From Candidatus Avispirillum sp. (GTDB lineage Bacteria; Bacillota; Clostridia; Oscillospirales; CAG-272), in NCBI GenBank assembly GCA_045641325.1, contig JAZUGU010000039.1:219-64218 (forward strand): DNA of 64,000 nt, given 5' to 3'. The notes beneath the pieces were generated by a model, which worked only from the letters and a program-made list of their open reading frames with translations, had not been told where the DNA came from and did no database searches. This document shows, one piece after another, positions 6,646 to 22,304 of the stretch; positions within the stretch are counted from its first letter, which is position 1, and each line of letters opens with the position of its first letter. The translations under genes and the position numbers were made by a program.

Positions 6646-6685
6646 AAAGCCGGCAGAAATTTCTGCCGGCTTTATATTATTTTTA
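6646..6685 (+). terminator. Intrinsic terminator
   Basis: agccggcagaa-at-ttctgccggct followed by a T-rich tail. Confidence 0.7.
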
Positions 6686-6694
6686 TAAAATGTA

Positions 6695-6723
6695 TTCAAA
6701 TCCGGAAAGGATTATGGTATAAT
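6695..6723 (+). promoter_or_regulatory. Sigma-A type promoter of the STAS operon
   Basis: TTCAAA, 17 nt spacer, TGgTATAAT. Confidence 0.55.
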
Positions 6724-6771: not shown

Positions 6772-7068
6772 ATGAATATTATTAAAAGCGGCGAAAACAA
6801 TGCTCTCACGTTTGCCATCGAGGGCAGACTGGATACCAATACCGCACCTCAGCTTGAGGCGGAGCTTGCGGGCGCACTTGAGGGTGTGACAGAACTGGTA
6901 TTTGATTTTGAAAAGCTGGAATACATATCTTCTGCGGGACTCCGCGTCATACTGTCCGTCCAGAAAGAGATGAAAAACAAGGGTACCTTTGTGATCAGAA
7001 ACGTCTGTGACGGTATTATGGACGTATTTGAAATAACCGGATTTTCCGATATTCTGACAATAGAATAA
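6772..7068 (+). CDS. STAS domain protein (anti-sigma-factor antagonist family)
   Basis: 98 aa. [12 protein letters not shown]...[13 protein letters not shown]...[10 protein letters not shown] matches the SpoIIAA/RsbV-type STAS pattern, including the serine position. Confidence 0.85.
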
Positions 7069-7082
7069 AAAAGGCGGGAATT

Positions 7083-7841
7083 ATGGAAAAATCATACCAT
7101 ATCGGCTTTGACGAGGGCCACGGCGCGCGCTATGCCATCCTTCCCGGAGATCCCGGAAGAGTGGAAGAAATAGCCGGCTATCTCGATAATCCCGGATTCC
7201 ATTGCAGACAGCGTGAATATACCACATGGCTCGGAGAGCTTGAGGGCGAAAAGGTACTGGTCATGTCCACCGGTATGGGAGGTCCTTCCACGGCGATCGG
7301 CGTGGAGGAGCTTTACAGGACCGGTGTGGATACCTTTATTCGTGTGGGCACGTGCGGCGCAATGCAGAAGGAGATCGTCGGAGGCGATATAGTTATCGCA
7401 ACCGGTGCCATTCGCATGGAGGGAACCACGAAAGAATACGTTCCCATAGAGTTCCCCGCAGTAGCCGATCTTGACGTGGCGAATGCTCTCGTCGGTGCGG
7501 CGAAAAAACTGGGGCATACTCATTATGCGGGTGTTGTGCAATGTAAAGATTCGTTCTACGGACAGCATGACCCGGACCGTATGCCCGCAGGCTATGAGCT
7601 CAACGAAAAGTGGAACGCATGGATCATGGCAGGATGCCTCGCATCCGAAATGGAGAGCGCCGCTCTCTATATCGTGTCATCCGTTCTTCGCGCCAGAGCC
7701 GGGGCGGTTTTCTCCGTCGTGTGGAACCAGGAAAGAGCAAAGCTCGGTCTTTCCAACCCCGAGATCCACGACAACAGCCGCTCCATTTCCACAGCTGTGG
7801 AAGCAATCAGAACACTGATACTCAAAGATAAAGCAGAATAA
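7083..7841 (+). CDS. udp: Uridine phosphorylase
   Basis: [34 protein letters not shown] and EMESAAL motifs are collinear with Udp/PNP-UDP family 1. Confidence 0.9.
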
Positions 7842-7854
7842 ACGAGGTCGATCA

Positions 7855-9027
7855 ATGAACTATACCGCAGAAAACGAAATACTGACTCTTTTCCTTTCCG
7901 GCAGGGTGGATTCTTCCAACTCCGATGCCGTATGCGCGGATGCAGAAAAAATCATCGCGGAAAATGCGCACACCGCTCTGGTGATAGATGCAGGCGAGCT
8001 TGAATATATCTCCAGCGCAGGACTCAGAGTCATTCTCAGAATAAGAAAAAGCGAGCCCACGCTCCGGATCATTAACGTTACCTCGGATATTTACGAGATA
8101 TTCGAAATGACGGGATTTTCCGAAATGATCCCCATCGAAAAAGCATATAAAGAGCTTTCCGTTGACGGATGCGAGATCATAGGCGAGGGCGCAAAGGGAA
8201 TAGTGTACCGTTATAACGACGATACGATCGTCAAAGTGTATAAGAATGCGGACAGCCTTCCGGACATACAGAACGAAAGAAAACTTGCAAGATGTGCATT
8301 CGTGCTCGGTATCCCCACAGCCATGTCTTACGATATCGTAAAAGTGGGCGAAAGCTACGGCTCCGTTTTCGAGCTTCTTTCCGCAAAGTCTTATTCCGAG
8401 ATGCTCGTGATAGATCCCGATAACCGTGATAAATATATTTCGGATTGTGTTGAGCTTCTTAAAAAGATCCACAGCACAAAGGTGAAAGCTGACGATATGC
8501 CCGATATGAAGATATTCGTCAGAGACTGGCTGAAAACCGCATCTCCTTTCCTCGAAAAAGACGATGCCGAAAAGCTTTCACGCCTTATAGAAGAGACACC
8601 CGATACAAGCACGATGCTCCATTGCGATTTCCATACGAACAATGTCATGAACCAGAACGGGGAAACGCTTCTCATCGACATGGACACGCTCAGCCACGGA
8701 CATCCTGTATTCGAGCTTGCCAATATGTACATAACGTACGTGGGCTTTGGAGAGCACGATCCGTCGATGGTCGAGAAGTTTCTGAAACTGCCCTATGATA
8801 CGGCAAAGTATATCTGGGACAGATCAATTGCTCTGTATCTCGGCACGGAAGACAAGGAGAAAATCGCCGTGGTGGAGAACAAAGCCAAGCTTATCGCATA
8901 CCTCAGGCTGGCCCGCCATTTTGCCCGCCGCGGAGACAGTATAAACGAAAAGGAACGTGAAACCATAAAATATGCCGCAGGGCGTATAAGAGAACTTATA
9001 GACGGTATAGATACCCTTGATTTCTGA
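7855..9027 (+). CDS. STAS domain fused to APH/choline-kinase-fold phosphotransferase
   Basis: Residues 1-95 are STAS ([23 protein letters not shown]). The rest has a kinase-like N-lobe (GEGAKGIVYR...VKVYK), a catalytic loop HCDFHTNNVM and LIDMD. Confidence 0.85.
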   Translation: MNYTAENEILTLFLSGRVDSSNSDAVCADAEKIIAENAHTALVIDAGELEYISSAGLRVILRIRKSEPTLRIINVTSDIYEIFEMTGFSEMIPIEKAYKELSVDGCEIIGEGAKGIVYRYNDDTIVKVYKNADSLPDIQNERKLARCAFVLGIPTAMSYDIVKVGESYGSVFELLSAKSYSEMLVIDPDNRDKYISDCVELLKKIHSTKVKADDMPDMKIFVRDWLKTASPFLEKDDAEKLSRLIEETPDTSTMLHCDFHTNNVMNQNGETLLIDMDTLSHGHPVFELANMYITYVGFGEHDPSMVEKFLKLPYDTAKYIWDRSIALYLGTEDKEKIAVVENKAKLIAYLRLARHFARRGDSINEKERETIKYAAGRIRELIDGIDTLDF

Positions 9028-9040
9028 AAGGAGAAATAAC

Positions 9041-9367
9041 GTGAAGCTTATAACCGCAATAATCAACAAAAGAGATTCCGGAGAAGTATGCCATTCTCTT
9101 TCCGAGGCGGGATACTACTTTACGAAAATCGCCACCTCCGGAGGCTTCCTCAGTTCGGGAAACGTAACGCTTCTCATCGGTACAGAGGATGAGAAGGTGG
9201 AGGGTGCCCTCGAGATCATCAGAAAGAATTCCGCGCAGAGAGTGGAGGCAGTCCCCGATGCATCCTACGGCGAGTCCGTCTCCTTCATTTCTCCGTCCCC
9301 CGTAACGGTTCCGGTAGGCGGCGCCACGGTGTTTGTGACTGACGTGTACCATTACGAAAAAATGTAA
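9041..9367 (+). CDS. darA: Cyclic-di-AMP receptor, PII-like (DUF970)
   Basis: KLITAII...FTKIATSGGFLSSGN...GGATVFV is collinear with B. subtilis YaaQ/DarA as I recall it. GTG start 9 nt after aaaGGAG. Confidence 0.9.
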   Translation: MKLITAIINKRDSGEVCHSLSEAGYYFTKIATSGGFLSSGNVTLLIGTEDEKVEGALEIIRKNSAQRVEAVPDASYGESVSFISPSPVTVPVGGATVFVTDVYHYEKM

Positions 9368-11188: not shown

Positions 11189-11222
11189 GAAAAAGCCGCC
11201 CGGCAGGGCGGCTTTAGTATTT
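11189..11222. terminator. Bidirectional terminator (STAS operon / asnA)
   Basis: aagccgccc-ggca-gggcggctt flanked by A-run and T-run. Confidence 0.7.
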
Positions 11223-12412: not shown

Positions 12413-12442
12413 AAATTATAAATTTTCTTGTGTGAGGATAAG

Positions 12443-13015
12443 ATGAAGCTTCTTGAGGATCGTATAAAGAAAGACGGCATCGTCAGCGAGGGCGATGTGC
12501 TCAGCATCTCAAGCTTTCTCAATCATCAGATGGATATAGGTCTTCTCTGCGAGCTCGGACGTGAGTTCGAGAGGCTTTATCACGGAGAAAAGATCACCAA
12601 GATCCTTACCATAGAGGCATCCGGTATCGGCATCGCCTGTATTGCGGCACAGTATTTCGGCGTCCCGGTGCTTTTTGCAAAAAAAGGCCGCACCGATAAT
12701 ATCAGCACGGACGTGTATGCGACCAAGGTGTATTCGTATACCCACAAAAAAGAATACGGCGTAGTAGTATCTAAGGAATTTCTCAAAAAGGACGACAGAG
12801 TCCTCATCATCGACGACTTTCTTGCGACCGGTAACGCAGTAGTGGCACTTGCAGATCTGTGCCGCCTTGCGGGATGTGAGATCGCAGGCGTGGGTGCCGT
12901 CGTTGAAAAAAGCTACCAGAACGGCAGAGCACTGCTTGAAGAGATGGGCCTGAGAGTCGAGTCTCTCGCACGCATCAAATCCATGAGCGTGGAAAACGGC
13001 GTAGAATTCCTGTGA
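12443..13015 (+). CDS. xpt: Xanthine phosphoribosyltransferase
   Basis: MKLLEDRIKKDG..., PRPP motif VLIIDDFLATGN, about 190 aa. Confidence 0.9.
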   Translation: MKLLEDRIKKDGIVSEGDVLSISSFLNHQMDIGLLCELGREFERLYHGEKITKILTIEASGIGIACIAAQYFGVPVLFAKKGRTDNISTDVYATKVYSYTHKKEYGVVVSKEFLKKDDRVLIIDDFLATGNAVVALADLCRLAGCEIAGVGAVVEKSYQNGRALLEEMGLRVESLARIKSMSVENGVEFL

Positions 13016-13091
13016 TACTGCTTTTCATTTCCGGTTTTTATCGGGATTTTTTCCCGAAAAAATAAATTAATTTATTCGGAGGTATATCCCC

Positions 13092-14360
13092 ATGAACAGA
13101 AGAATTCTTTCCGTTCTTCTCGCGCTGGCTATGGTATTCACCATGCTCGCATTCGCTTCCTGCGGCAATGAGGCTGCACCTGAAGACAGCGAAAAGACCA
13201 CAGACACAACCGATGCAGCTCCTTTCAAGGCAGTTGAAAAGGCTGACCTCAAGATCGGTCTTATCACTCTTCACGATGACTCTTCCACCTACGACAAGAA
13301 CTTCATCGACGCTATGTACGCTGCTCTCGAGGAGCTCGGCATCGATAAGTCCCAGCTCGTTCTCTACACCGGCATCGCCGAGACCGAGGACTGCTACAAC
13401 AAGGCAAAAGACTGTGTAAACCAGGGCTGCCAGGTAGTATTCGCTGATTCCTTCGGTCATGAGGACTTCATGATCCAGGCTGCTATCGAGTTCCCCCAGG
13501 TTCACTTCTGCCACGCAACCGGCACGAAGGCTCACTCTGTCAACTATGACAACTTCTCCAACGCGTTTGCCGCTATCTACGAAGGCAGATACGCTGCAGG
13601 TATCGCTGCAGGTATGAAGCTGAACGAGATGATCGAGGCTGGCAAGATCACTGCAGAGCAGGCTGTTATGGGCTACGTTGGCGCATACACCTATGCAGAA
13701 GTTATGTCCGGATACACCTCCTTCTACCTTGGCGCGAAGTCCGTATGTCCTACCGTCACCATGAAGGTTAAGTTCACCGGTTCCTGGTATGACACCGATA
13801 AGGAAAAGGCAGCTGCAGAGGCTCTCATTTCCGAGGGCTGCGCACTCATTTCCCAGCACGCTGACTCCTACGGCGCTCCCGAGGCATGCGAGGCAGCAGG
13901 CGTTCCCAACGTTTCTTACAACGGCTCTACCATCACTGCGGGTCCCAACACCTACATCGTATCTTCCAAGATCAACTGGACTCCTTACTTCAAGTACATG
14001 ATCGAGACCACCATGGCAGGCGGCGTTATCGATAACGATTACACCGGCACCGTTGAGAGCGGTTCCGTCGAACTTCTCGAGGTAAACGAAGCTGTTGCAG
14101 CTGAGGGCACCCAGGAAGCTATCGACGAAGCTCTTGCAGCATTCAAGGCTGGCACTCTCCATGTATTCGATACCGAGACTTTCACCGTTGCAGGTGAGAA
14201 GCTCGAGTCCTACATGGCTGACGTTGATACTGATGAAGCATTCGAGAAGGACACCGAGGTTATTGCTGACGGTTACTTCCACGAGTCCGAGTTCCGTTCT
14301 GCTCCTTACTTCGACGTTGAGATCGACGGTATCGAGCTTCTGGACCGTAACTACGGCTGA
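13092..14360 (+). CDS. BMP-family (PnrA/Med-like) nucleoside-binding lipoprotein of ABC transporter
   Basis: Lipobox LAFASC and BMP-like core (GLITLHDD...GYVGAYTYAEV...SQHADS). Confidence 0.9.
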   Translation: MNRRILSVLLALAMVFTMLAFASCGNEAAPEDSEKTTDTTDAAPFKAVEKADLKIGLITLHDDSSTYDKNFIDAMYAALEELGIDKSQLVLYTGIAETEDCYNKAKDCVNQGCQVVFADSFGHEDFMIQAAIEFPQVHFCHATGTKAHSVNYDNFSNAFAAIYEGRYAAGIAAGMKLNEMIEAGKITAEQAVMGYVGAYTYAEVMSGYTSFYLGAKSVCPTVTMKVKFTGSWYDTDKEKAAAEALISEGCALISQHADSYGAPEACEAAGVPNVSYNGSTITAGPNTYIVSSKINWTPYFKYMIETTMAGGVIDNDYTGTVESGSVELLEVNEAVAAEGTQEAIDEALAAFKAGTLHVFDTETFTVAGEKLESYMADVDTDEAFEKDTEVIADGYFHESEFRSAPYFDVEIDGIELLDRNYG

Positions 14361-14375
14361 TTTGCAAACAGAATT

Positions 14376-14419
14376 GATAGCAAAGCGGGAATTCCCGCTT
14401 TGCTATCTTGTCTTTTTTT
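14376..14419 (+). terminator. Strong intra-operon hairpin/attenuator between the binding-protein and ATPase genes
   Basis: 14-bp perfect stem gatagcaaagcggg-aatt-cccgctttgctatc followed by ttgtcttttttt. Confidence 0.65.
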
Positions 14420-14445
14420 ATAAAAATCTATTCTGAGGAGTCAAG

Positions 14446-16044
14446 ATGGAAAAAGAAATAGCTCTCGAACTCCGTAATATTACTAAAAGATTCGGAACAA
14501 AGGTTGTCGCAAATAAAAACGTCAGCCTCACAGTATATAAAAATGAGATACTGTCTCTTCTGGGTGAGAACGGCTCCGGAAAGACAACGCTTATGAATAT
14601 GATCTCCGGCATCTATTTCCCCGATGAGGGCGAAATACTTGTAAACGGAGAGCCTGCCGTTATTGCCTCCCCTGCGGACGCATATAACTATAAGATCGGA
14701 ATGATCCATCAGCATTTCAAACTGGTGGAAACCTTTACCGCCGCCGAGAACATCATTCTCGGAAACGGTGAAAAATATAAACTGAAGAACGTAAATGCCC
14801 GTGTTTCCGAAATTGCGGCGAAATACGGTTTTGATATAGACCCCAAAAAGAAAATACATGAAATGTCTGTTTCCGAGAAACAGACCGTTGAGATAATCAA
14901 AGCGCTGTACAGAGGTGCGGATATCCTTATTCTGGACGAGCCCACCGCAGTGCTGACACCTCAAGAGATCGAGAAGCTGTTTGATGTGCTCCGCCGTATG
15001 AGAGATGACGGAAAAGCCGTTATCATCATCACCCATAAGCTCAACGAGGTGCTTGAGATATCCGACCGTGTCACCATTCTCCGTAAAGGCGAGTACATCG
15101 GTACCGTGCAGACAGCCGAAACCGATGAAAAAGAGCTCACGGAAATGATGGTCGGCAAAAAAGTGGACCTGAAGATCGAGCGCATAGATATCGAAAAGAA
15201 AAAGCCCCTTCTCGAGATCCGTGATCTCACCGTTAAATCCGATGCCGGGAACATTGCCATCAATAACGTCAGCTTCTATATCAGAGGCGGAGAGATCCTC
15301 GGCGTTGCGGGAATTGCAGGATGCGGACAGAAAGAACTCTGCGAGGCTATTGCCGGACTGAGAACTCCCGAAAGCGGACATATAATGCATAAGGGCGAAT
15401 CCATTGTAGGCCTGCCCGCAAGAGAGATCATCAAAAAGGGAATATCCATGAGCTTCATTCCCGAGGACCGTCTGGGAATGGGACTGGCTCCGTCCTTCTC
15501 CATGACGGACAACATGATGCTCAAAACGTATAACGACGGGATCACTCCTTTCGTGAACCGCAGAAGCGCACGTCAGAGAGCCCAGGCACTCATTGAAAAG
15601 CTGGGTATCGTCACTCCCTCAACGGAAACTCCCGTCCGCCGTCTATCCGGAGGTAACGTACAGAAGATCCTGGTCGGCCGTGAGATCGAATCCGGCCCCA
15701 ACGTTATCGTAACAGCATACCCGGTAAGAGGTCTTGATATCAATTCCTCATATCTTATTTACGATATTCTCAATGAGCAGAAAAAGAATGACGTCGGCAT
15801 TCTCTTCGTAGGCGAAGACCTTGACGTTATGCTGTCCCTCTGCGATAAGATCCTGGTCCTCTGCCACGGCGAGGTAATGGGCGTTGTCCATGCCAATAAG
15901 ACCACTAAAGAGGAGCTCGGCCTTATGATGACCGGATCTCTTGACTTAAAGCAGGAAAAGGAATACGGTAAAGCAAAAGACTCCAACCTTACCGAAGAAC
16001 AATGGAACGAAGCCAATGAGATCGCTGAAAAGGAGGACGAATGA
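14446..16044 (+). CDS. ABC transporter ATP-binding protein, duplicated ATPase (nucleoside/sugar type)
   Basis: Two ABC cassettes: GENGSGKTT...LILDEPT and LSGGNVQK.... Confidence 0.9.
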   Translation: MEKEIALELRNITKRFGTKVVANKNVSLTVYKNEILSLLGENGSGKTTLMNMISGIYFPDEGEILVNGEPAVIASPADAYNYKIGMIHQHFKLVETFTAAENIILGNGEKYKLKNVNARVSEIAAKYGFDIDPKKKIHEMSVSEKQTVEIIKALYRGADILILDEPTAVLTPQEIEKLFDVLRRMRDDGKAVIIITHKLNEVLEISDRVTILRKGEYIGTVQTAETDEKELTEMMVGKKVDLKIERIDIEKKKPLLEIRDLTVKSDAGNIAINNVSFYIRGGEILGVAGIAGCGQKELCEAIAGLRTPESGHIMHKGESIVGLPAREIIKKGISMSFIPEDRLGMGLAPSFSMTDNMMLKTYNDGITPFVNRRSARQRAQALIEKLGIVTPSTETPVRRLSGGNVQKILVGREIESGPNVIVTAYPVRGLDINSSYLIYDILNEQKKNDVGILFVGEDLDVMLSLCDKILVLCHGEVMGVVHANKTTKEELGLMMTGSLDLKQEKEYGKAKDSNLTEEQWNEANEIAEKEDE

Positions 16045-17144
16045 TGAAGACTAAACAGAAAACTCATGAGCCCCTTTTCCACGTAACGAAAAACGATGCG
16101 ATGCCCGTTAGCAAGTCCCTTGCCATCCGTGCACTTGCCGTCGTTGTCGCACTCATTATCGTCGGTATCCTCAGCGTTATCCTTATAAAGGAAAATCCGC
16201 TCAACATCTATAAAGCATTGTTTACCGGTGCCTTCATCGACGTGTGGACGCTTCTCCAGAACATAGCGCTCCTGCTCATGTTCGGCCTTGCGGTCATTCC
16301 TCCCTTCAAAATGAAGTACTGGAATATGGGAGCAAACGGACAGGTACTCGTGGGATGCCTTGCAGCGATAGCATGCATGAAATTCATCCCCGCATCATTC
16401 CCCCAGCTGTCCGATACAGTGATCATTATAATCATGATAGCTGCAAGTATTCTTGCCTCGGTTATCTGGTCCATTATCCCCGCGTTCTTCAAGGCGTATT
16501 TCAACGCAAACGAAACGCTTTTCACACTGATGATGAACTACATAGCGATTGCAGTTGTCGATTGCTTCGTGTTCAACTGGGATAAGAGCGGATCGGGAAA
16601 TATCGGTATCGTAAACCTTCTTACAAGAAGAGCATGGATCCCCACGGTTTATAATAACTACCTGCTTTCCGTTATAGTGGCAGTGGTGTTCACCGTGATC
16701 ATGTTCATCTATATGAGATATACCAAGCACGGCTTTGAGGTCGCTCTCGTCGGTGAAAGCGTGAATACCGCAAAGTACGTCGGTATCAACGTTAAAAAGG
16801 TTATCATCAGAACACTGGTATTCAGCGGTGTTATCTGCGGTGTGCTCGGCGTGCTTTACGCAGGTGCGATATCGCATACGGTAAATACCGCGGTAGGCGG
16901 CCTCGGATTCACGGCGATCCTGGTGGCATGGCTCGCAGGATTTGATCCTCTTGCAATGCTGTTCACGGCATTCTTCGTCGTGTTCCTCAATTCCGGAGCG
17001 GAAAACGTTTCCGTCGTGTTCCAGCTCAACAGTAACGACTATGCAAACATAGTCGTGGGAATTATCTTCTTCTGCGTCATCGGATGCGAATTCTTTATCC
17101 GCTACCGTATCATGCTGAATAAGAGCGGCAACCGCAATAACTGA
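16041..17144 (+). CDS. ABC transporter permease
   Basis: Multi-TM. ATGA overlap with the ATPase gene. Confidence 0.85.
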   Translation: MMKTKQKTHEPLFHVTKNDAMPVSKSLAIRALAVVVALIIVGILSVILIKENPLNIYKALFTGAFIDVWTLLQNIALLLMFGLAVIPPFKMKYWNMGANGQVLVGCLAAIACMKFIPASFPQLSDTVIIIIMIAASILASVIWSIIPAFFKAYFNANETLFTLMMNYIAIAVVDCFVFNWDKSGSGNIGIVNLLTRRAWIPTVYNNYLLSVIVAVVFTVIMFIYMRYTKHGFEVALVGESVNTAKYVGINVKKVIIRTLVFSGVICGVLGVLYAGAISHTVNTAVGGLGFTAILVAWLAGFDPLAMLFTAFFVVFLNSGAENVSVVFQLNSNDYANIVVGIIFFCVIGCEFFIRYRIMLNKSGNRNN

Positions 17145-17158
17145 AAGGAGAGAGTGCG

Positions 17159-18118
17159 ATGTTAACAACGATCATAGTAAACGCTATCCGTATGGGCACG
17201 ATCTTTCTTTTCGGATGTATCGGTGAGATCCTTACGGAAAAAGCAGGTAACTTAAACCTCGGTATCCCAGGCATCATGTGTATCGGTGCAACCGGCGGCG
17301 GCCTTGCGGTGTCACTGTATGCCGGTCATACGGCAGAGCCCAATTCCGCGATCCTCGTTATCCTTTCAGTCCTGTTCACAATGGTGTTCGCAGGTCTTGC
17401 AGGCCTTCTGTATTCGTTCCTCACGGTTTCGCTCAATGCTAACCAGAACGTTACCGGCCTTACAATGACGACCTTCGGCGTAGGCTTCATGAAATTCTTT
17501 TCCAAGAGGATCTACGACCAGAAGCTGTTCGTGTCCGTAAGCTATTGCTTCAAGAATCTGCTCGGTATGGACGGTAAAAAGGATGCCTTTTCGCAGATAT
17601 TCCTCAGCCACGGCGTTCTCGTGTATCTCGCCATCATCCTTGCGATCCTCGTAGCGCTGTTCCTAAATAAAACGAAATACGGTCTGTATCTCCGTGCCGT
17701 GGGCGAAAGCCCCGCAACGGCAGACGCCGACGGTATAAACGTTAAAAAGTATAAGTATGCATTCATAACTCTGGGCTCTGCCATCGCAGGTCTCGGCGGT
17801 CTGTATTATATTATGGACAGAAGCGCGGGAACACAGTTTGCGGAAGCGGCGATCGATTCCTTCGGCTGGCTGGCGGTTGCACTTGTAATTGCCTCTGTCT
17901 GGAAGCCTTTGTTCGCGATTGTAGGCTCATTCATTTTCGGCGGCCTTTCCATCATGGATGCACAGCTTACAACCCTGTCCCTGGCACAGCAGAAGCTGTT
18001 CGCAATCGTTCCGTTCCTTATCACGGTCATAGTGCTTATCGTGGTAAGTATGCTGAAGCTGAAAGACAATCAGCCTCCCGCATCTCTCGGCCTTCCTTAT
18101 TTCCGAGAGGACAGATAA
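17159..18118 (+). CDS. ABC transporter permease
   Basis: Multi-TM. Second permease of the BMP-type system. Confidence 0.85.
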   Translation: MLTTIIVNAIRMGTIFLFGCIGEILTEKAGNLNLGIPGIMCIGATGGGLAVSLYAGHTAEPNSAILVILSVLFTMVFAGLAGLLYSFLTVSLNANQNVTGLTMTTFGVGFMKFFSKRIYDQKLFVSVSYCFKNLLGMDGKKDAFSQIFLSHGVLVYLAIILAILVALFLNKTKYGLYLRAVGESPATADADGINVKKYKYAFITLGSAIAGLGGLYYIMDRSAGTQFAEAAIDSFGWLAVALVIASVWKPLFAIVGSFIFGGLSIMDAQLTTLSLAQQKLFAIVPFLITVIVLIVVSMLKLKDNQPPASLGLPYFREDR

Positions 18119-19080: not shown

Positions 19081-21915
19081 ATGAGCGTATATATCCATCT
19101 GTTGATTCTGGCTTTGTTTCCGGTAGCTTTCTCCGTAATTTTCTATTTTCTCAAAAGGAAAACACCGTTCGGAAGGCTGCCGTACGCCGTACAGCAGATC
19201 ATAATAGGAATAGTCTTCGGCGCAATAGCTGTGATCAATACCGAATTCGGAGTTGACGTGGGCGGAGCCACCGCAAACGCAAGAGATGCTGCCCCCCTCT
19301 GCGCCGGATTCATTTTCGGCGGTCCTGCCGGTATCATCGCCGGCGTTATCGGCGGTGTTGAACGCTGGTTTGCCGCATATTGGGGAGCAGGTGCCTATTC
19401 TCAGGTAGCCTGTTCTGTTTCCACGTTTCTCGCCGGTCTGTATGCCGCATTCCTCAGAAAATTCATGCTGGACAACAGGCGTCCTACGTGGGGATTCGGT
19501 GCCGCTACCGCTGTCGTTATGGAAATCATTCACATAACGGTCCTTGTGCTGACACATATTTCAGACCTGTCACGCGCATTTGACATAGTAAAGATCTGCA
19601 CACTCCCCATGGTCGTGAGCAATGCGGTGGCCGTGATGCTTTCCATCGTTGCGATAACGCTTTACAGTGCAAAGGCACATAAAAGCACCATAAGATATAA
19701 AAAAATATCGCAGCAGGTGCAGGCATGGCTTCTGGTCTGCGTCGTGCTCGCTTATTTTTTGACCACTCTGTTCGTATTCAGCCTCCAGACACAGACCGCA
19801 ATTTCCGACACCAAGAAAATGCTTTCGCTGAATCTTGCCGATGTCAAAGAAGACGTTATCAACACGTCCAATGAAAATCTTCTGAGAATAAGCCGTAAGA
19901 TCACCGTCGAGGTCAATAATAACCCCGATGTGGATCTGGAACTTCTCTGTGATAAATATGACGTTTCCGAGATCAACATAGTCAATACTTCAAATAAGAT
20001 CATAGTTTCAACCAATCCCGATTACGTGGGATTTGATATGATGTCCGGCAGTCAGTCTGCTGAATTTTCCGTGCTGAATAAAACAGAGCAGGAATGGGTG
20101 CAGAACTATTTGCCGACAACGTACGACCACAGCGTGTCCATGAAGTACGCGGGAATATCCATGGCAGGAAAGGGTTTTGTCCAGGTCGGATATAATGCGG
20201 ATAAATTTCAGGACGACCTTGCGATCCAGGTAAAGGGAAAAACCAAAAACCGTCACGTCGGAAACGACGGATATATGCTTATCGCCGATGACAGCAATGT
20301 GATCGTCAGCGCACCGTCAAAGCTTCTCGGCAAAGACGTCGTGGACGTTGTTGACATCAGTGAGGAATCTTCCTCTGATCTTTTCAAGCAGACGGTCAAC
20401 AGAGTAAAATCATACTGTATGTACACCAAGTCCGAAGGATTCACAATTATCGGTGTAGTCCCGGAAAGCGAGGTATTCTATACCCGTGACATAATGTCGT
20501 ACATCAATTCCTTTATGGAAGTTCTCGTATTTGCCTTTCTGTTCTTCTTCGTATATATGCTGATCAAAAAGCTGGTCGTTGATAAGATACGTATCGTCAA
20601 TGACAGCCTCGGAAGAATTATCGAAGGAGATATGGATGTTACCGTCAACGTCAGATCAAGTGATGAATTCTCATCTCTTTCCGATGATATAAACAGTACC
20701 GTCACAACGCTTAAGCATTATATTGACGAAGCTGCAACAAGGATTGACAAGGAGTTGGAATTTGCAAAGAACATCCAGCATTCCGCTCTGCCTTCCGTAT
20801 TCCCCGCATATCCTAATATAAAAGAGTTCGATATCCATGCGGCAATGGATACCGCCAAGGAAGTCGGCGGAGATTTCTATGATTTCTATCTTCTCGGTGA
20901 AGATAAGCTGGCATTTCTTATAGCTGACGTGTCAGGCAAAGGAATACCTGCGGCCATGTTTATGATGACCGCAAAGACCATGATTAAGAATTTCGCCGAA
21001 TCCGGTCTCGGAGTGGATGAGGTGTTCACCCGCGCCAATGAAAAGCTTTGCGAGGGCAACGATGCCGGTATGTTTGTTACGGCATGGATGGGCATACTGG
21101 ATATAAATACGGGCCACGTGACCTTTGCAAATGCGGGACATAATCCTCCTCTCATATACAGGAAAGGCTCAGGCTACGAGTATCTGAAATCCCGTGCGGG
21201 ATTTGTTCTTGCCGGAATGGACGGCGTAAAATATAAGCTTCAGGAATTTGATCTCTGTCCGGGTGACAAAATATATCTGTATACTGACGGCGTGACGGAA
21301 GCGACAGATAGTGAAAGCAAACTGTACGGCGAAGACAGACTGCAAAGGCTTCTCAATGCGAATACCGAAGACAGCCCCCAGGAATGTCTCAACAGAGTAC
21401 GCCGTGATATAGATGTATTTGTGGGTGAAGCCGAACAGTTTGATGATATAACCATGCTGTCCGTAGCTTTCAACGGAACGGAAAAAGGCGGTGCTGACGA
21501 TATGGAAATAGAAGAAAGAGTTTTTCCCGCAGAGGACGGCGCGCTGATGACGGCTACTTCATTTCTTGAAGAAAAGCTGGAGGAATGCGGCGCATCTATG
21601 AAGACGGTGATGCAGCTTTCCGTAGTTCTTGAGGAACTGTTCGTCAACGTGGCGCATTATGCATACCCGGATGAAAAAGGAACTCTTTCTCTCGGGCTCG
21701 GCTTTGACGTGAATACAAGGAATTTCATCATGAGATTTACCGATGAGGGAATACCGTTCGATCCATTGGCCAAGGAAGACCCGGACGTTACTCTGTCAGC
21801 CGACGAAAGAAATATAGGCGGTCTGGGGATCTTTATGGTCAAGAAGACAATGGACAGCGTAGAGTACGAGAGAACGGACGGCAAAAACGTACTCACTCTC
21901 AAAAAGACGATATGA
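19081..21915 (+). CDS. Membrane sensor: LytS-type 5TM domain + extracytoplasmic domain + HAMP + PP2C/SpoIIE phosphatase + RsbW-type GHKL kinase domain
   Basis: N-terminal TM bundle with ARDAAPLCAGFIFGGPAGIIAG. A second TM at about aa 480. PP2C motifs GGDFYDF, IADVSGKG, LYTDGVTEA and DDITML. C-terminal N-box EELFVNVAHYAY, G1 DEGIPFDP and G2 GGLGIFMV. Confidence 0.85.
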   Translation: MSVYIHLLILALFPVAFSVIFYFLKRKTPFGRLPYAVQQIIIGIVFGAIAVINTEFGVDVGGATANARDAAPLCAGFIFGGPAGIIAGVIGGVERWFAAYWGAGAYSQVACSVSTFLAGLYAAFLRKFMLDNRRPTWGFGAATAVVMEIIHITVLVLTHISDLSRAFDIVKICTLPMVVSNAVAVMLSIVAITLYSAKAHKSTIRYKKISQQVQAWLLVCVVLAYFLTTLFVFSLQTQTAISDTKKMLSLNLADVKEDVINTSNENLLRISRKITVEVNNNPDVDLELLCDKYDVSEINIVNTSNKIIVSTNPDYVGFDMMSGSQSAEFSVLNKTEQEWVQNYLPTTYDHSVSMKYAGISMAGKGFVQVGYNADKFQDDLAIQVKGKTKNRHVGNDGYMLIADDSNVIVSAPSKLLGKDVVDVVDISEESSSDLFKQTVNRVKSYCMYTKSEGFTIIGVVPESEVFYTRDIMSYINSFMEVLVFAFLFFFVYMLIKKLVVDKIRIVNDSLGRIIEGDMDVTVNVRSSDEFSSLSDDINSTVTTLKHYIDEAATRIDKELEFAKNIQHSALPSVFPAYPNIKEFDIHAAMDTAKEVGGDFYDFYLLGEDKLAFLIADVSGKGIPAAMFMMTAKTMIKNFAESGLGVDEVFTRANEKLCEGNDAGMFVTAWMGILDINTGHVTFANAGHNPPLIYRKGSGYEYLKSRAGFVLAGMDGVKYKLQEFDLCPGDKIYLYTDGVTEATDSESKLYGEDRLQRLLNANTEDSPQECLNRVRRDIDVFVGEAEQFDDITMLSVAFNGTEKGGADDMEIEERVFPAEDGALMTATSFLEEKLEECGASMKTVMQLSVVLEELFVNVAHYAYPDEKGTLSLGLGFDVNTRNFIMRFTDEGIPFDPLAKEDPDVTLSADERNIGGLGIFMVKKTMDSVEYERTDGKNVLTLKKTI

Positions 21916-22304
21916 ACGCAGTAGAGGTCGCCGCGGCACTGATATGGGATAACGGCAGGTTTATGATCTGTCAGAGACCTCCGCACAAGGCAAGAGGCAT
22001 GCTCTGGGAATTCGTGGGAGGAAAACTTGATCCGGGGGAAACCGGAGAGGAAGCTCTTATCCGTGAATGCATGGAAGAACTGGGCGTTACGGTATCACCC
22101 GAAAGCGTATTCTTCGACGTGATACACAAGTACCCGGATATCACGGTGCACCTTACCGTGTATAAAGCAAGCATTGCAAACGGAACACCGAGGCTTCTTG
22201 AACATAACGATATCAGATGGATCAAGCCTTCTGAAATACCGCAGTATGAGTTTTGTCCGGCGGACGTAGAAATTCTTGAAAAAATAACTGAACTGTACAG
22301 CTGA
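21912..22304 (+). CDS. NUDIX hydrolase (MutT-like)
   Basis: Nudix box GGKLDPGETGEEALIRECMEELGV. ATGA overlap with the upstream gene. Confidence 0.85.
   Translation: MNAVEVAAALIWDNGRFMICQRPPHKARGMLWEFVGGKLDPGETGEEALIRECMEELGVTVSPESVFFDVIHKYPDITVHLTVYKASIANGTPRLLEHNDIRWIKPSEIPQYEFCPADVEILEKITELYS

Follow-up and report, generated by a model that had tools for sequence, protein, structure and literature searches.

A STAS-APH kinase fusion of gut and rumen Clostridia, the probable enzymatic output of a phospho-switch of the partner-switching type

The gene at 7855-9027 (+ strand) of a 64,000-nucleotide window of contig JAZUGU010000039.1, from Candidatus Avispirillum sp., encodes a 390-aa protein in which an N-terminal STAS domain is followed, with no linker between, by a kinase domain of the APH fold. 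In our view the fusion probably provides the enzymatic output of a phospho-switch of the partner-switching type, in which the STAS domain gates a small-molecule kinase, because RsbW-like GHKL kinases and SpoIIE-type PP2C phosphatases are encoded beside related fusion genes, GHKL domains are fused to the protein itself in other genomes, the window holds an ortholog of the neighbouring sensor protein, Ser54 and the kinase active site are conserved, and the fold is that of small-molecule kinases. The fused STAS domain would be the receiver, with Ser54 phosphorylated by the RsbW-like GHKL kinase and dephosphorylated by the SpoIIE-type PP2C, two activities that here would reside in one membrane sensor protein (19081-21915). 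Packed rigidly on the N-lobe of the kinase, the STAS domain would switch it on or off either through its phosphorylation state or through its capture by the GHKL domain, while a free-standing 98-aa STAS protein, presenting the same GHKL/PP2C-facing loop, would compete for or buffer the same enzymes. The substrate of the kinase would be a small molecule, not the STAS domain, and the kinase reaction is probably undone by a phosphoesterase encoded alongside, which in other genomes is HD_4 or PHP. Which enzyme phosphorylates which domain, in what direction the kinase is regulated and what class its substrate belongs to are inferred from architecture, gene neighbourhood and domain fusions.

The fusion gene is an open reading frame with an ATG start and a GAGG motif 8 nt upstream. 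Residues 5-99 matched Pfam STAS (PF01740, E 3.9e-12) and residues 108-309 matched Pfam APH (PF01636, E 2.3e-17; 64 bits versus a cut-off of 23.2), which confirms the two-domain architecture that an earlier note on this DNA had read from the letters. The fused STAS domain (7855-8145, +, residues 1-97) scored 48.9 bits against NCBIfam ant_ant_sig, slightly below the cut-off of 53.45, and its sequence matches in the PDB were 4hyl and 1th8 (SpoIIAA). Its invariant Ser54 (8014-8016) starts helix 54-66 and aligns with the DSS motif of SpoIIAA (ISSAGL versus MDSSGL). The kinase domain (8146-9027, +, residues 98-390) has a helical C-lobe and carries a Gly-rich loop, GEGAKG (residues 110-115), followed on the + strand by Lys127 (8233-8235), Glu141 (8275-8277), HCDFHTNN with Asp258 and Asn263 (8620-8643) and IDMD with Asp275 (8674-8685); the catalytic motifs are intact, as the earlier note had it. 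The top NCBIfam match was TIGR02172, the Fibrobacter paralogous APH-like proteins, at 114.2 bits versus a cut-off of 228.2; it is the closest named family, and the fusion is not a member. No NCBIfam family of defined function came near its cut-off, resistance and spore-kinase families all falling far below, and the Pfam scan gave no Pkinase match to the fusion at E <= 0.01.

The AlphaFold2 model of the fusion, built on a 117-sequence alignment, had a pLDDT of 94.5 and a pTM of 0.81. In the model, residues 1-96 form the beta-alpha pattern of a STAS domain (pLDDT 94-98), there is no flexible linker, and STAS strand 94-96 continues into kinase strand 99-101. Foldseek against the PDB returned APH-family small-molecule kinases exclusively, with TM-scores of 0.45-0.6, 12-18% identity and E values of about 1e-9; the top matches were APH(2''), APH(3'), capreomycin phosphotransferase, macrolide phosphotransferase and methylthioribose kinase. 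The stretch between Asp277 and the next helix (284-295) is only about six residues long, so the modelled domain has no protein-kinase-type activation segment. Judged by this model, the fusion kinase is structurally nearest to small-molecule kinases.

The protein belongs to a large family. In a search of 5.8 billion proteins, the best 120 matches were all about 390 aa long and all combined STAS with APH. A HMMER scan of representatives at 50% identity yielded 678 clusters at E <= 1e-30, and nearly all of the best 150 were full length; a scan of one genome per species placed the family in at least 589 species. Conservation was counted over 131 diverged full-length representatives, in which Ser54 was 100% conserved, Gly56, Leu57 and Arg58 were 98-99% conserved, and Lys127, Glu141, His256, Asp258, Asn263 and Asp275 were 95-100% conserved. 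The serine and the kinase active site are therefore both under strong selection. We searched the literature for the STAS-APH architecture, for TIGR02172 and for links of small alarmone hydrolases with STAS domains or kinases, and found no paper on the family.

To examine the genomic context, we took the 80 loci that best matched the window protein, clustered their open reading frames and scanned the clusters against Pfam. Nearly all of these loci came from Clostridia or other Bacillota of gut and rumen, including Acutalibacteraceae, Oscillospiraceae, Lachnospiraceae, Flavonifractor and Coprococcus catus; cultured bacteria (Coprococcus catus and Flavonifractor sp. An82) carry the module described below. 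A few records stand under other names (Segatella copri, Bifidobacteriaceae) and may be mis-binned contigs. The conserved gene order was a protein with a 5TMR-LYT sensor, a SpoIIE PP2C and an RsbW-like HATPase_c_2 domain, then an HD_4 gene of about 190 aa, the STAS-APH fusion, and the free STAS of 98 aa. HD_4 stood immediately upstream of the fusion on the same strand in 51 of the 80 loci. An RsbW-like GHKL domain lay within 6 kb of the fusion in 43, a SpoIIE PP2C in 35 and a free STAS in 36, the last being immediately downstream in 27. Where a PP2C was near the fusion, it was mostly part of a single sensor-PP2C-GHKL protein encoded immediately upstream. The closest matches of the HD_4 protein were small alarmone hydrolases and the hydrolase domain of RelA/SpoT (PDB 7qoe, 4yf1, Mesh1). 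No sigma factor was found among neighbour clusters present in at least five loci or among window genes scanned over 1-43.6 kb. Public records misname STAS-APH members 'anti-sigma factor antagonist' or 'ATP-binding protein'; the first label finds no support in a module without a sigma factor, and the fusion should not be filed under it.

Domain fusions join the same parts. Among diverged representatives we found the architectures GHKL-STAS-APH, STAS-APH-GHKL, HD_4-STAS-APH, HD-CE-STAS-APH, STAS-APH-PHP and Na/H-exchanger-STAS-APH. Clustering at 90% identity gave no fewer than 120 clusters of STAS-APH-GHKL proteins (about 528 aa), many of them from long contigs, of up to 986 kb, and on that showing they are a large, real clade and no artefact. 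We sampled seven loci of this sister clade: a free STAS gene lay upstream in six, a PHP phosphoesterase gene immediately downstream in five, and a SpoIIE protein without GHKL was encoded in four. The PHP protein was nearest to 3',5'-nucleoside bisphosphate phosphatase and RNase RNM/TrpH (PDB 3e0f, 2yb1, 7ug9). Because the SpoIIE neighbour of this clade has no GHKL domain, that domain has moved within a conserved module. As read from these genes, the two clades keep the same five functions together while domains shift between polypeptides and the phosphoesterase is swapped for a non-homologous one.

Several rarer architectures were also seen. Four are known from one cluster representative each: P0264 (809 aa), the Na/H-exchanger-STAS-APH protein, in which the catalytic Asp is replaced (HGSLH) and which may be a pseudokinase; P0160 (668 aa), HD-CE-STAS-APH; P0138 (705 aa), STAS-APH-PHP; and P0123 (516 aa), a STAS-APH-YezG-like protein. 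STAS-HD_4 fusions of about 300 aa, which are rare, lay immediately upstream of STAS-APH (L069 5073-5981, P0271; also P0272 and P0273), and the canonical serine position of the L069 protein reads ISPDG; these fusions suggest that the hydrolase can likewise come under STAS control. In the sister clade, a protein of about 200 aa with no Pfam record adjoins the free STAS (L083 4357-4962, L087 781-1365, L089 2903-3508 and L068 2750-3343); its copies share 53-59% identity, and it is possibly a sixth component of the module.

Some loci pair STAS-APH with transporters. MatE transporters with a C-terminal RsbW-like HATPase_c_2 domain recur beside it (L031 7002-8741, L087 3231-4964 and L083 12264-14018), and in Flavonifractor/Intestinimonas-type loci this MatE-HATPase_c_2 gene is accompanied by an LPG_synthase_C (DUF2156) gene. 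It is unusual for a transporter to be fused to a kinase domain of the anti-sigma type. By sequence inspection, nine of ten large proteins that flank loci without GHKL or PP2C were unrelated surface or metabolic proteins. The tenth, a 1173-aa protein adjoining the STAS-APH gene in L077 (7269-10790), reads as a fused ABC transporter (binding protein, permease and ATPase), and its C-terminal tail (FEEICAMNIIPHS ... YEYSDGENRLVV) resembles, as read from the letters, an RsbW-like domain and may be GHKL-like.

In the window, the sensor protein of the module is encoded at 19081-21915 (+). It is a 944-aa membrane protein with 5TMR-LYT, a SpoIIE-type PP2C (residues 607-796) and an RsbW-like GHKL domain (residues 815-942), and it matched Pfam SpoIIE at E 1.8e-52 and HATPase_c_2 at E 4.5e-21 as well as NCBIfam RsbW and SiaA. 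It is 49-50% identical to the L053 protein that is encoded directly upstream of an HD_4-fusion-STAS set. Read by eye, the metal-binding motifs of its PP2C (GGDFYD, IADVSGKG, DGVTEA and FDDIT) and the N and G boxes of its GHKL domain (ELFVN, DEGIPFD and GGLGIF) are intact. The free and the fused STAS are the only STAS domains within the window, and this protein carries its only RsbW-like GHKL domain; it is likely to hold the enzyme pair acting on both STAS domains.

The free STAS gene (6772-7068, +) encodes 98 aa, with ISSAGL at residues 52-57 and the Ser54 codon at 6931-6933; the protein matched Pfam STAS (E 7e-15) and, at 63.9 bits, passed the ant_ant_sig cut-off of 53.45. An identical 13-aa block is encoded by 39 nt in the free STAS (6916-6954) and by 39 nt in the fusion (7999-8037), and 9 of its 13 codons differ, exactly those that the earlier note had listed. 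The two STAS domains of the window share 43% identity in protein and 54% in DNA. With the window free STAS, the free STAS proteins encoded in the operons of related loci share 50-70% identity and the fused STAS domains of those loci 33-46%, and the converse comparison holds too. By these figures, the window protein is an ortholog of the free STAS that adjoins the fusion in other genomes. The consensus of the block in related genomes is the same in the free and fused lineages, ending (I/L)L. Because the block is the consensus of both lineages and identity elsewhere is low, the free and fused STAS are old paralog lineages that share the most conserved motif of the family; on this comparison, the 13-aa identity is neither chance nor anything out of the ordinary. 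The same identities, and the separate orthologs of each lineage, rule out that the block arose by recent duplication or by gene conversion, and the proposal of purifying selection in place of recent duplication has held up. The block would be kept identical in both lineages because the free STAS, as we propose, shares the same GHKL and PP2C enzymes.

The earlier note had offered two roles for the kinase domain: to phosphorylate a STAS serine, or to be a small-molecule kinase gated by STAS. The evidence favours the second. It is quite unlikely that the APH-fold domain is a protein serine kinase for Ser54, acting in cis or on the free STAS and needing no GHKL. Such a kinase would fit the near-invariance of both Ser54 and the catalytic residues, the direct adjacency of the free STAS in a third of the loci (27 of 80), and several HD_4-fusion-STAS loci, L014 and L039 among them, in which neither GHKL nor PP2C lies within 6 kb; the rigid packing of STAS on the kinase could in principle offer Ser54 to the active site. 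Nor does the premise hold absolutely that STAS domains are phosphorylated by GHKL kinases alone, since the Hanks kinase PknD phosphorylates the STAS homolog Rv0516c (PMC1847690). However, about half of the related loci encode the canonical GHKL and PP2C enzymes along with the fusion, the window has both, and a GHKL domain is fused to STAS-APH in a large clade, which leaves the proposal of a STAS kinase unsupported. The nearest structures, at 12-18% identity, are all small-molecule kinases, the model has neither an activation segment nor a peptide-binding element, the Pkinase profile did not match, and 44 of the 80 loci have no free STAS nearby.

It is also unlikely that STAS is a docking or ligand-binding domain that regulates by localisation or by ligand and not by phosphorylation of Ser54, either as a tether to GHKL-bearing membrane proteins (the sensor, MatE or ABC transporters) or by binding a nucleotide or anion as in SulP transporters. 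The recurrent GHKL-like-MatE fusions beside the fusion gene agree with docking, as does the Na/H-exchanger-STAS-APH protein, which recalls transporter-linked STAS domains, and the HD_4-STAS-APH protein P0243 has lost the serine (ITNAGI) and retained the STAS domain. Yet Ser54 was conserved in every one of the 131 diverged representatives, and the presence in the module of a SpoIIE-type phosphatase with intact metal motifs is hard to explain without a phospho-serine substrate. An ordinary antibiotic-resistance phosphotransferase, for aminoglycoside, macrolide or peptide antibiotics, with a regulatory STAS domain and unrelated neighbours, would fit the best structural matches (phosphotransferases for aminoglycosides, capreomycin and macrolides) and the weak NCBIfam scores against APH(4), APH(6) and APH(2''). 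We regard this as highly improbable: the resistance-family matches scored 15.6-24.3 bits versus cut-offs of 172.7-725, the genes around the window fusion are chromosomal housekeeping genes, the family is spread over hundreds of species, and the genes next to its members are conserved, have signalling and phosphoesterase functions and are not mobile elements. Anti-phage defence was rejected, as PADLOC matched none of fusion, free STAS, sensor and HD_4, and so was a sporulation SpoIIAA/CotS-type spore kinase, for which there were weak sub-threshold matches only and no sigF or spoIIAB neighbours. Several observations weigh against the phospho-switch with a STAS-gated small-molecule kinase that we prefer. 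The 80 loci, being the best matches to the window protein, are not an unbiased sample, and 26 of them have no free STAS, GHKL or PP2C within 6 kb. The module is scattered in the window, where the sensor gene lies 10 kb from the fusion and no HD_4 or PHP gene was found, and L081, the closest relative (73% identity), has no adjacent free STAS.

As to the substrate, the kinase is paired with either of two phosphoesterases: HD_4, adjacent in the majority of the 80 loci and fused in HD_4-STAS-APH, or PHP, adjacent in most of the sister-clade sample and fused in STAS-APH-PHP. APH-family enzymes phosphorylate sugar hydroxyls. A nucleotide signal, for example a nucleoside 5'-(poly)phosphate bearing a 3'- or 2'-phosphate, is an attractive possibility, because these two phosphoesterase families are unrelated and the characterised relatives of both remove nucleotide 3'-(pyro)phosphates. 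The kinase and phosphoesterase might then be the writer and eraser of a phosphorylated nucleotide signal, switched by the partner switch of the membrane sensor, an idea that we put forward tentatively and with more doubt than belief. If it were true, the kinase would be a new, non-RelA/SpoT class of alarmone-type synthetase, and a pair that makes and breaks such a signal would bring a new synthetase fold into bacterial second-messenger biology.

In the window, the fusion is part of one transcription unit on the + strand, which runs from free STAS through udp, fusion and darA to a TIM-barrel-like gene of 225 aa and a pair of chromate-transporter genes, spaced by 13-14 bp or overlapping. Pattern scans placed a strong terminator (6646-6673) and then a promoter-like site, TTCAAA-17-TATAAT with a TG extension (an extended -10; 6695-6723, +; a consensus match only), before the free STAS, and a strong terminator-like hairpin at the end of the unit (11192-11215, +). 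The uridine phosphorylase gene udp (7083-7841, +; TIGR01718, 300.5 bits, over its cut-off) lies between the two STAS genes and fills the slot usually held by HD_4 in related loci. As a conserved partner it was ruled out: apart from the window, it turned up in L081 and, at a distance, in L002 only, and a udp-like neighbour occurred in only 1 of the 80 loci. Directly downstream of the fusion is a gene for a DarA/PstA-family cyclic-di-AMP receptor (9017-9367, +, with a probable GTG start at 9041; Pfam CdAMP_rec, E 8e-30). L081 shares the udp-fusion-darA order with the window, and in L082, L001 and L003 a DarA gene lies about 3.5 kb upstream on the opposite strand. The adjacency of DarA could be synteny retained among close relatives, the only loci in which it recurs, or a link to nucleotide signalling; for that reason we did not accept DarA as a partner in the module.

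Two further observations concern the surroundings of the sensor gene. A NUDIX_4 (MutT-like) gene of 130 aa (21912-22304, +) overlaps the stop codon of the sensor gene with its start (ATGA), so the two genes are probably translationally coupled; the NUDIX_4 hydrolase might fill the role of the HD_4 or PHP phosphoesterase that is absent from the window. Between the fusion operon and the sensor gene lies a nucleoside-salvage cluster (12428-18118, +) with genes for a phosphoribosyltransferase, a binding protein of the Bmp family, an ABC ATPase and two permeases, assigned by synteny with Pfam-annotated L081. Counting udp beside the fusion as well, nucleoside metabolism is the theme of this neighbourhood.

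As usually presented, partner switching serves to free a sigma factor. The present comparison defines a module of five parts (sensor-PP2C, GHKL, free STAS, STAS-kinase and phosphoesterase), whose domains are shuffled between proteins and kept together. A STAS domain fused to an enzyme as a direct phospho-switch has been shown only recently, for one cyanobacterial glycosyltransferase (PMC13555669). The STAS-APH family would carry the same logic to a much larger scale, with a kinase as output, in a different phylum and in hundreds of species of gut and rumen Clostridia.

That glycosyltransferase, All4160 of Anabaena PCC 7120, carries its STAS domain at the N-terminus and is regulated by HenR, which is SpoIIE-like, and by the serine kinase Alr3423 (PMC13555669, 2026), and it is the closest precedent for the STAS-APH fusion. 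Both have a STAS domain at the N-terminus, bearing a conserved serine and joined directly to an enzyme whose activity is the output (here the proposed one); both have as partners a phosphatase of the SpoIIE type and a serine kinase of the anti-sigma type (here by neighbourhood and fusion), and neither involves a sigma factor. The enzyme, however, is a sugar transferase of cyanobacteria in one case and an APH-fold kinase of gut and rumen Clostridia in the other; unlike in the All4160 system, the kinase and phosphatase are here fused to a 5TMR-LYT sensor, a free STAS and an HD_4 or PHP phosphoesterase are also conserved, and the system is known from genes alone. With the SpoIIAA/SpoIIAB/SpoIIE-sigmaF and RsbV/RsbW/RsbU-sigmaB switches it shares the three families (STAS, RsbW-like GHKL and SpoIIE/PP2C) and the serine at the same position, but here no sigma factor is a conserved neighbour, one STAS is fused to a kinase, and GHKL and PP2C lie in one membrane protein. 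Outputs other than sigma factors are known from SypE/SypA of Vibrio fischeri, in which a bifunctional kinase/phosphatase acts on a STAS protein (PMC8256260), and from the HsbA-HsbD, BgrV-BgrR and SiaABCD systems, in which free STAS or STAS-like proteins control diguanylate cyclases (PMC8457831). In these systems, too, a serine kinase and phosphatase, bifunctional or paired, set STAS phosphorylation, and in the diguanylate-cyclase systems the STAS target is an enzyme that makes a nucleotide signal; their STAS proteins are free and bind the target in trans, whereas here the STAS is fused, and to another enzyme fold. PknD of M. tuberculosis resembles what the earlier note proposed, in that a protein-kinase-like fold acts on a STAS protein, Rv0516c (PMC1847690), but it is a Hanks-type receptor kinase with an activation loop, is not fused to its substrate and targets Thr2 in place of the canonical serine, whereas the kinase here is of the APH type. 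The fusion, finally, has in common with the APH-family kinases its fold and helical substrate lobe, the catalytic loop HxDxxxxN, the Lys-Glu pair, an Asp that binds metal and the absence of an activation segment; it differs from APH(2''), APH(3'), capreomycin phosphotransferase and methylthioribose kinase, to which it is related at the low identities and TM-scores given above, in that none of them has a STAS domain.

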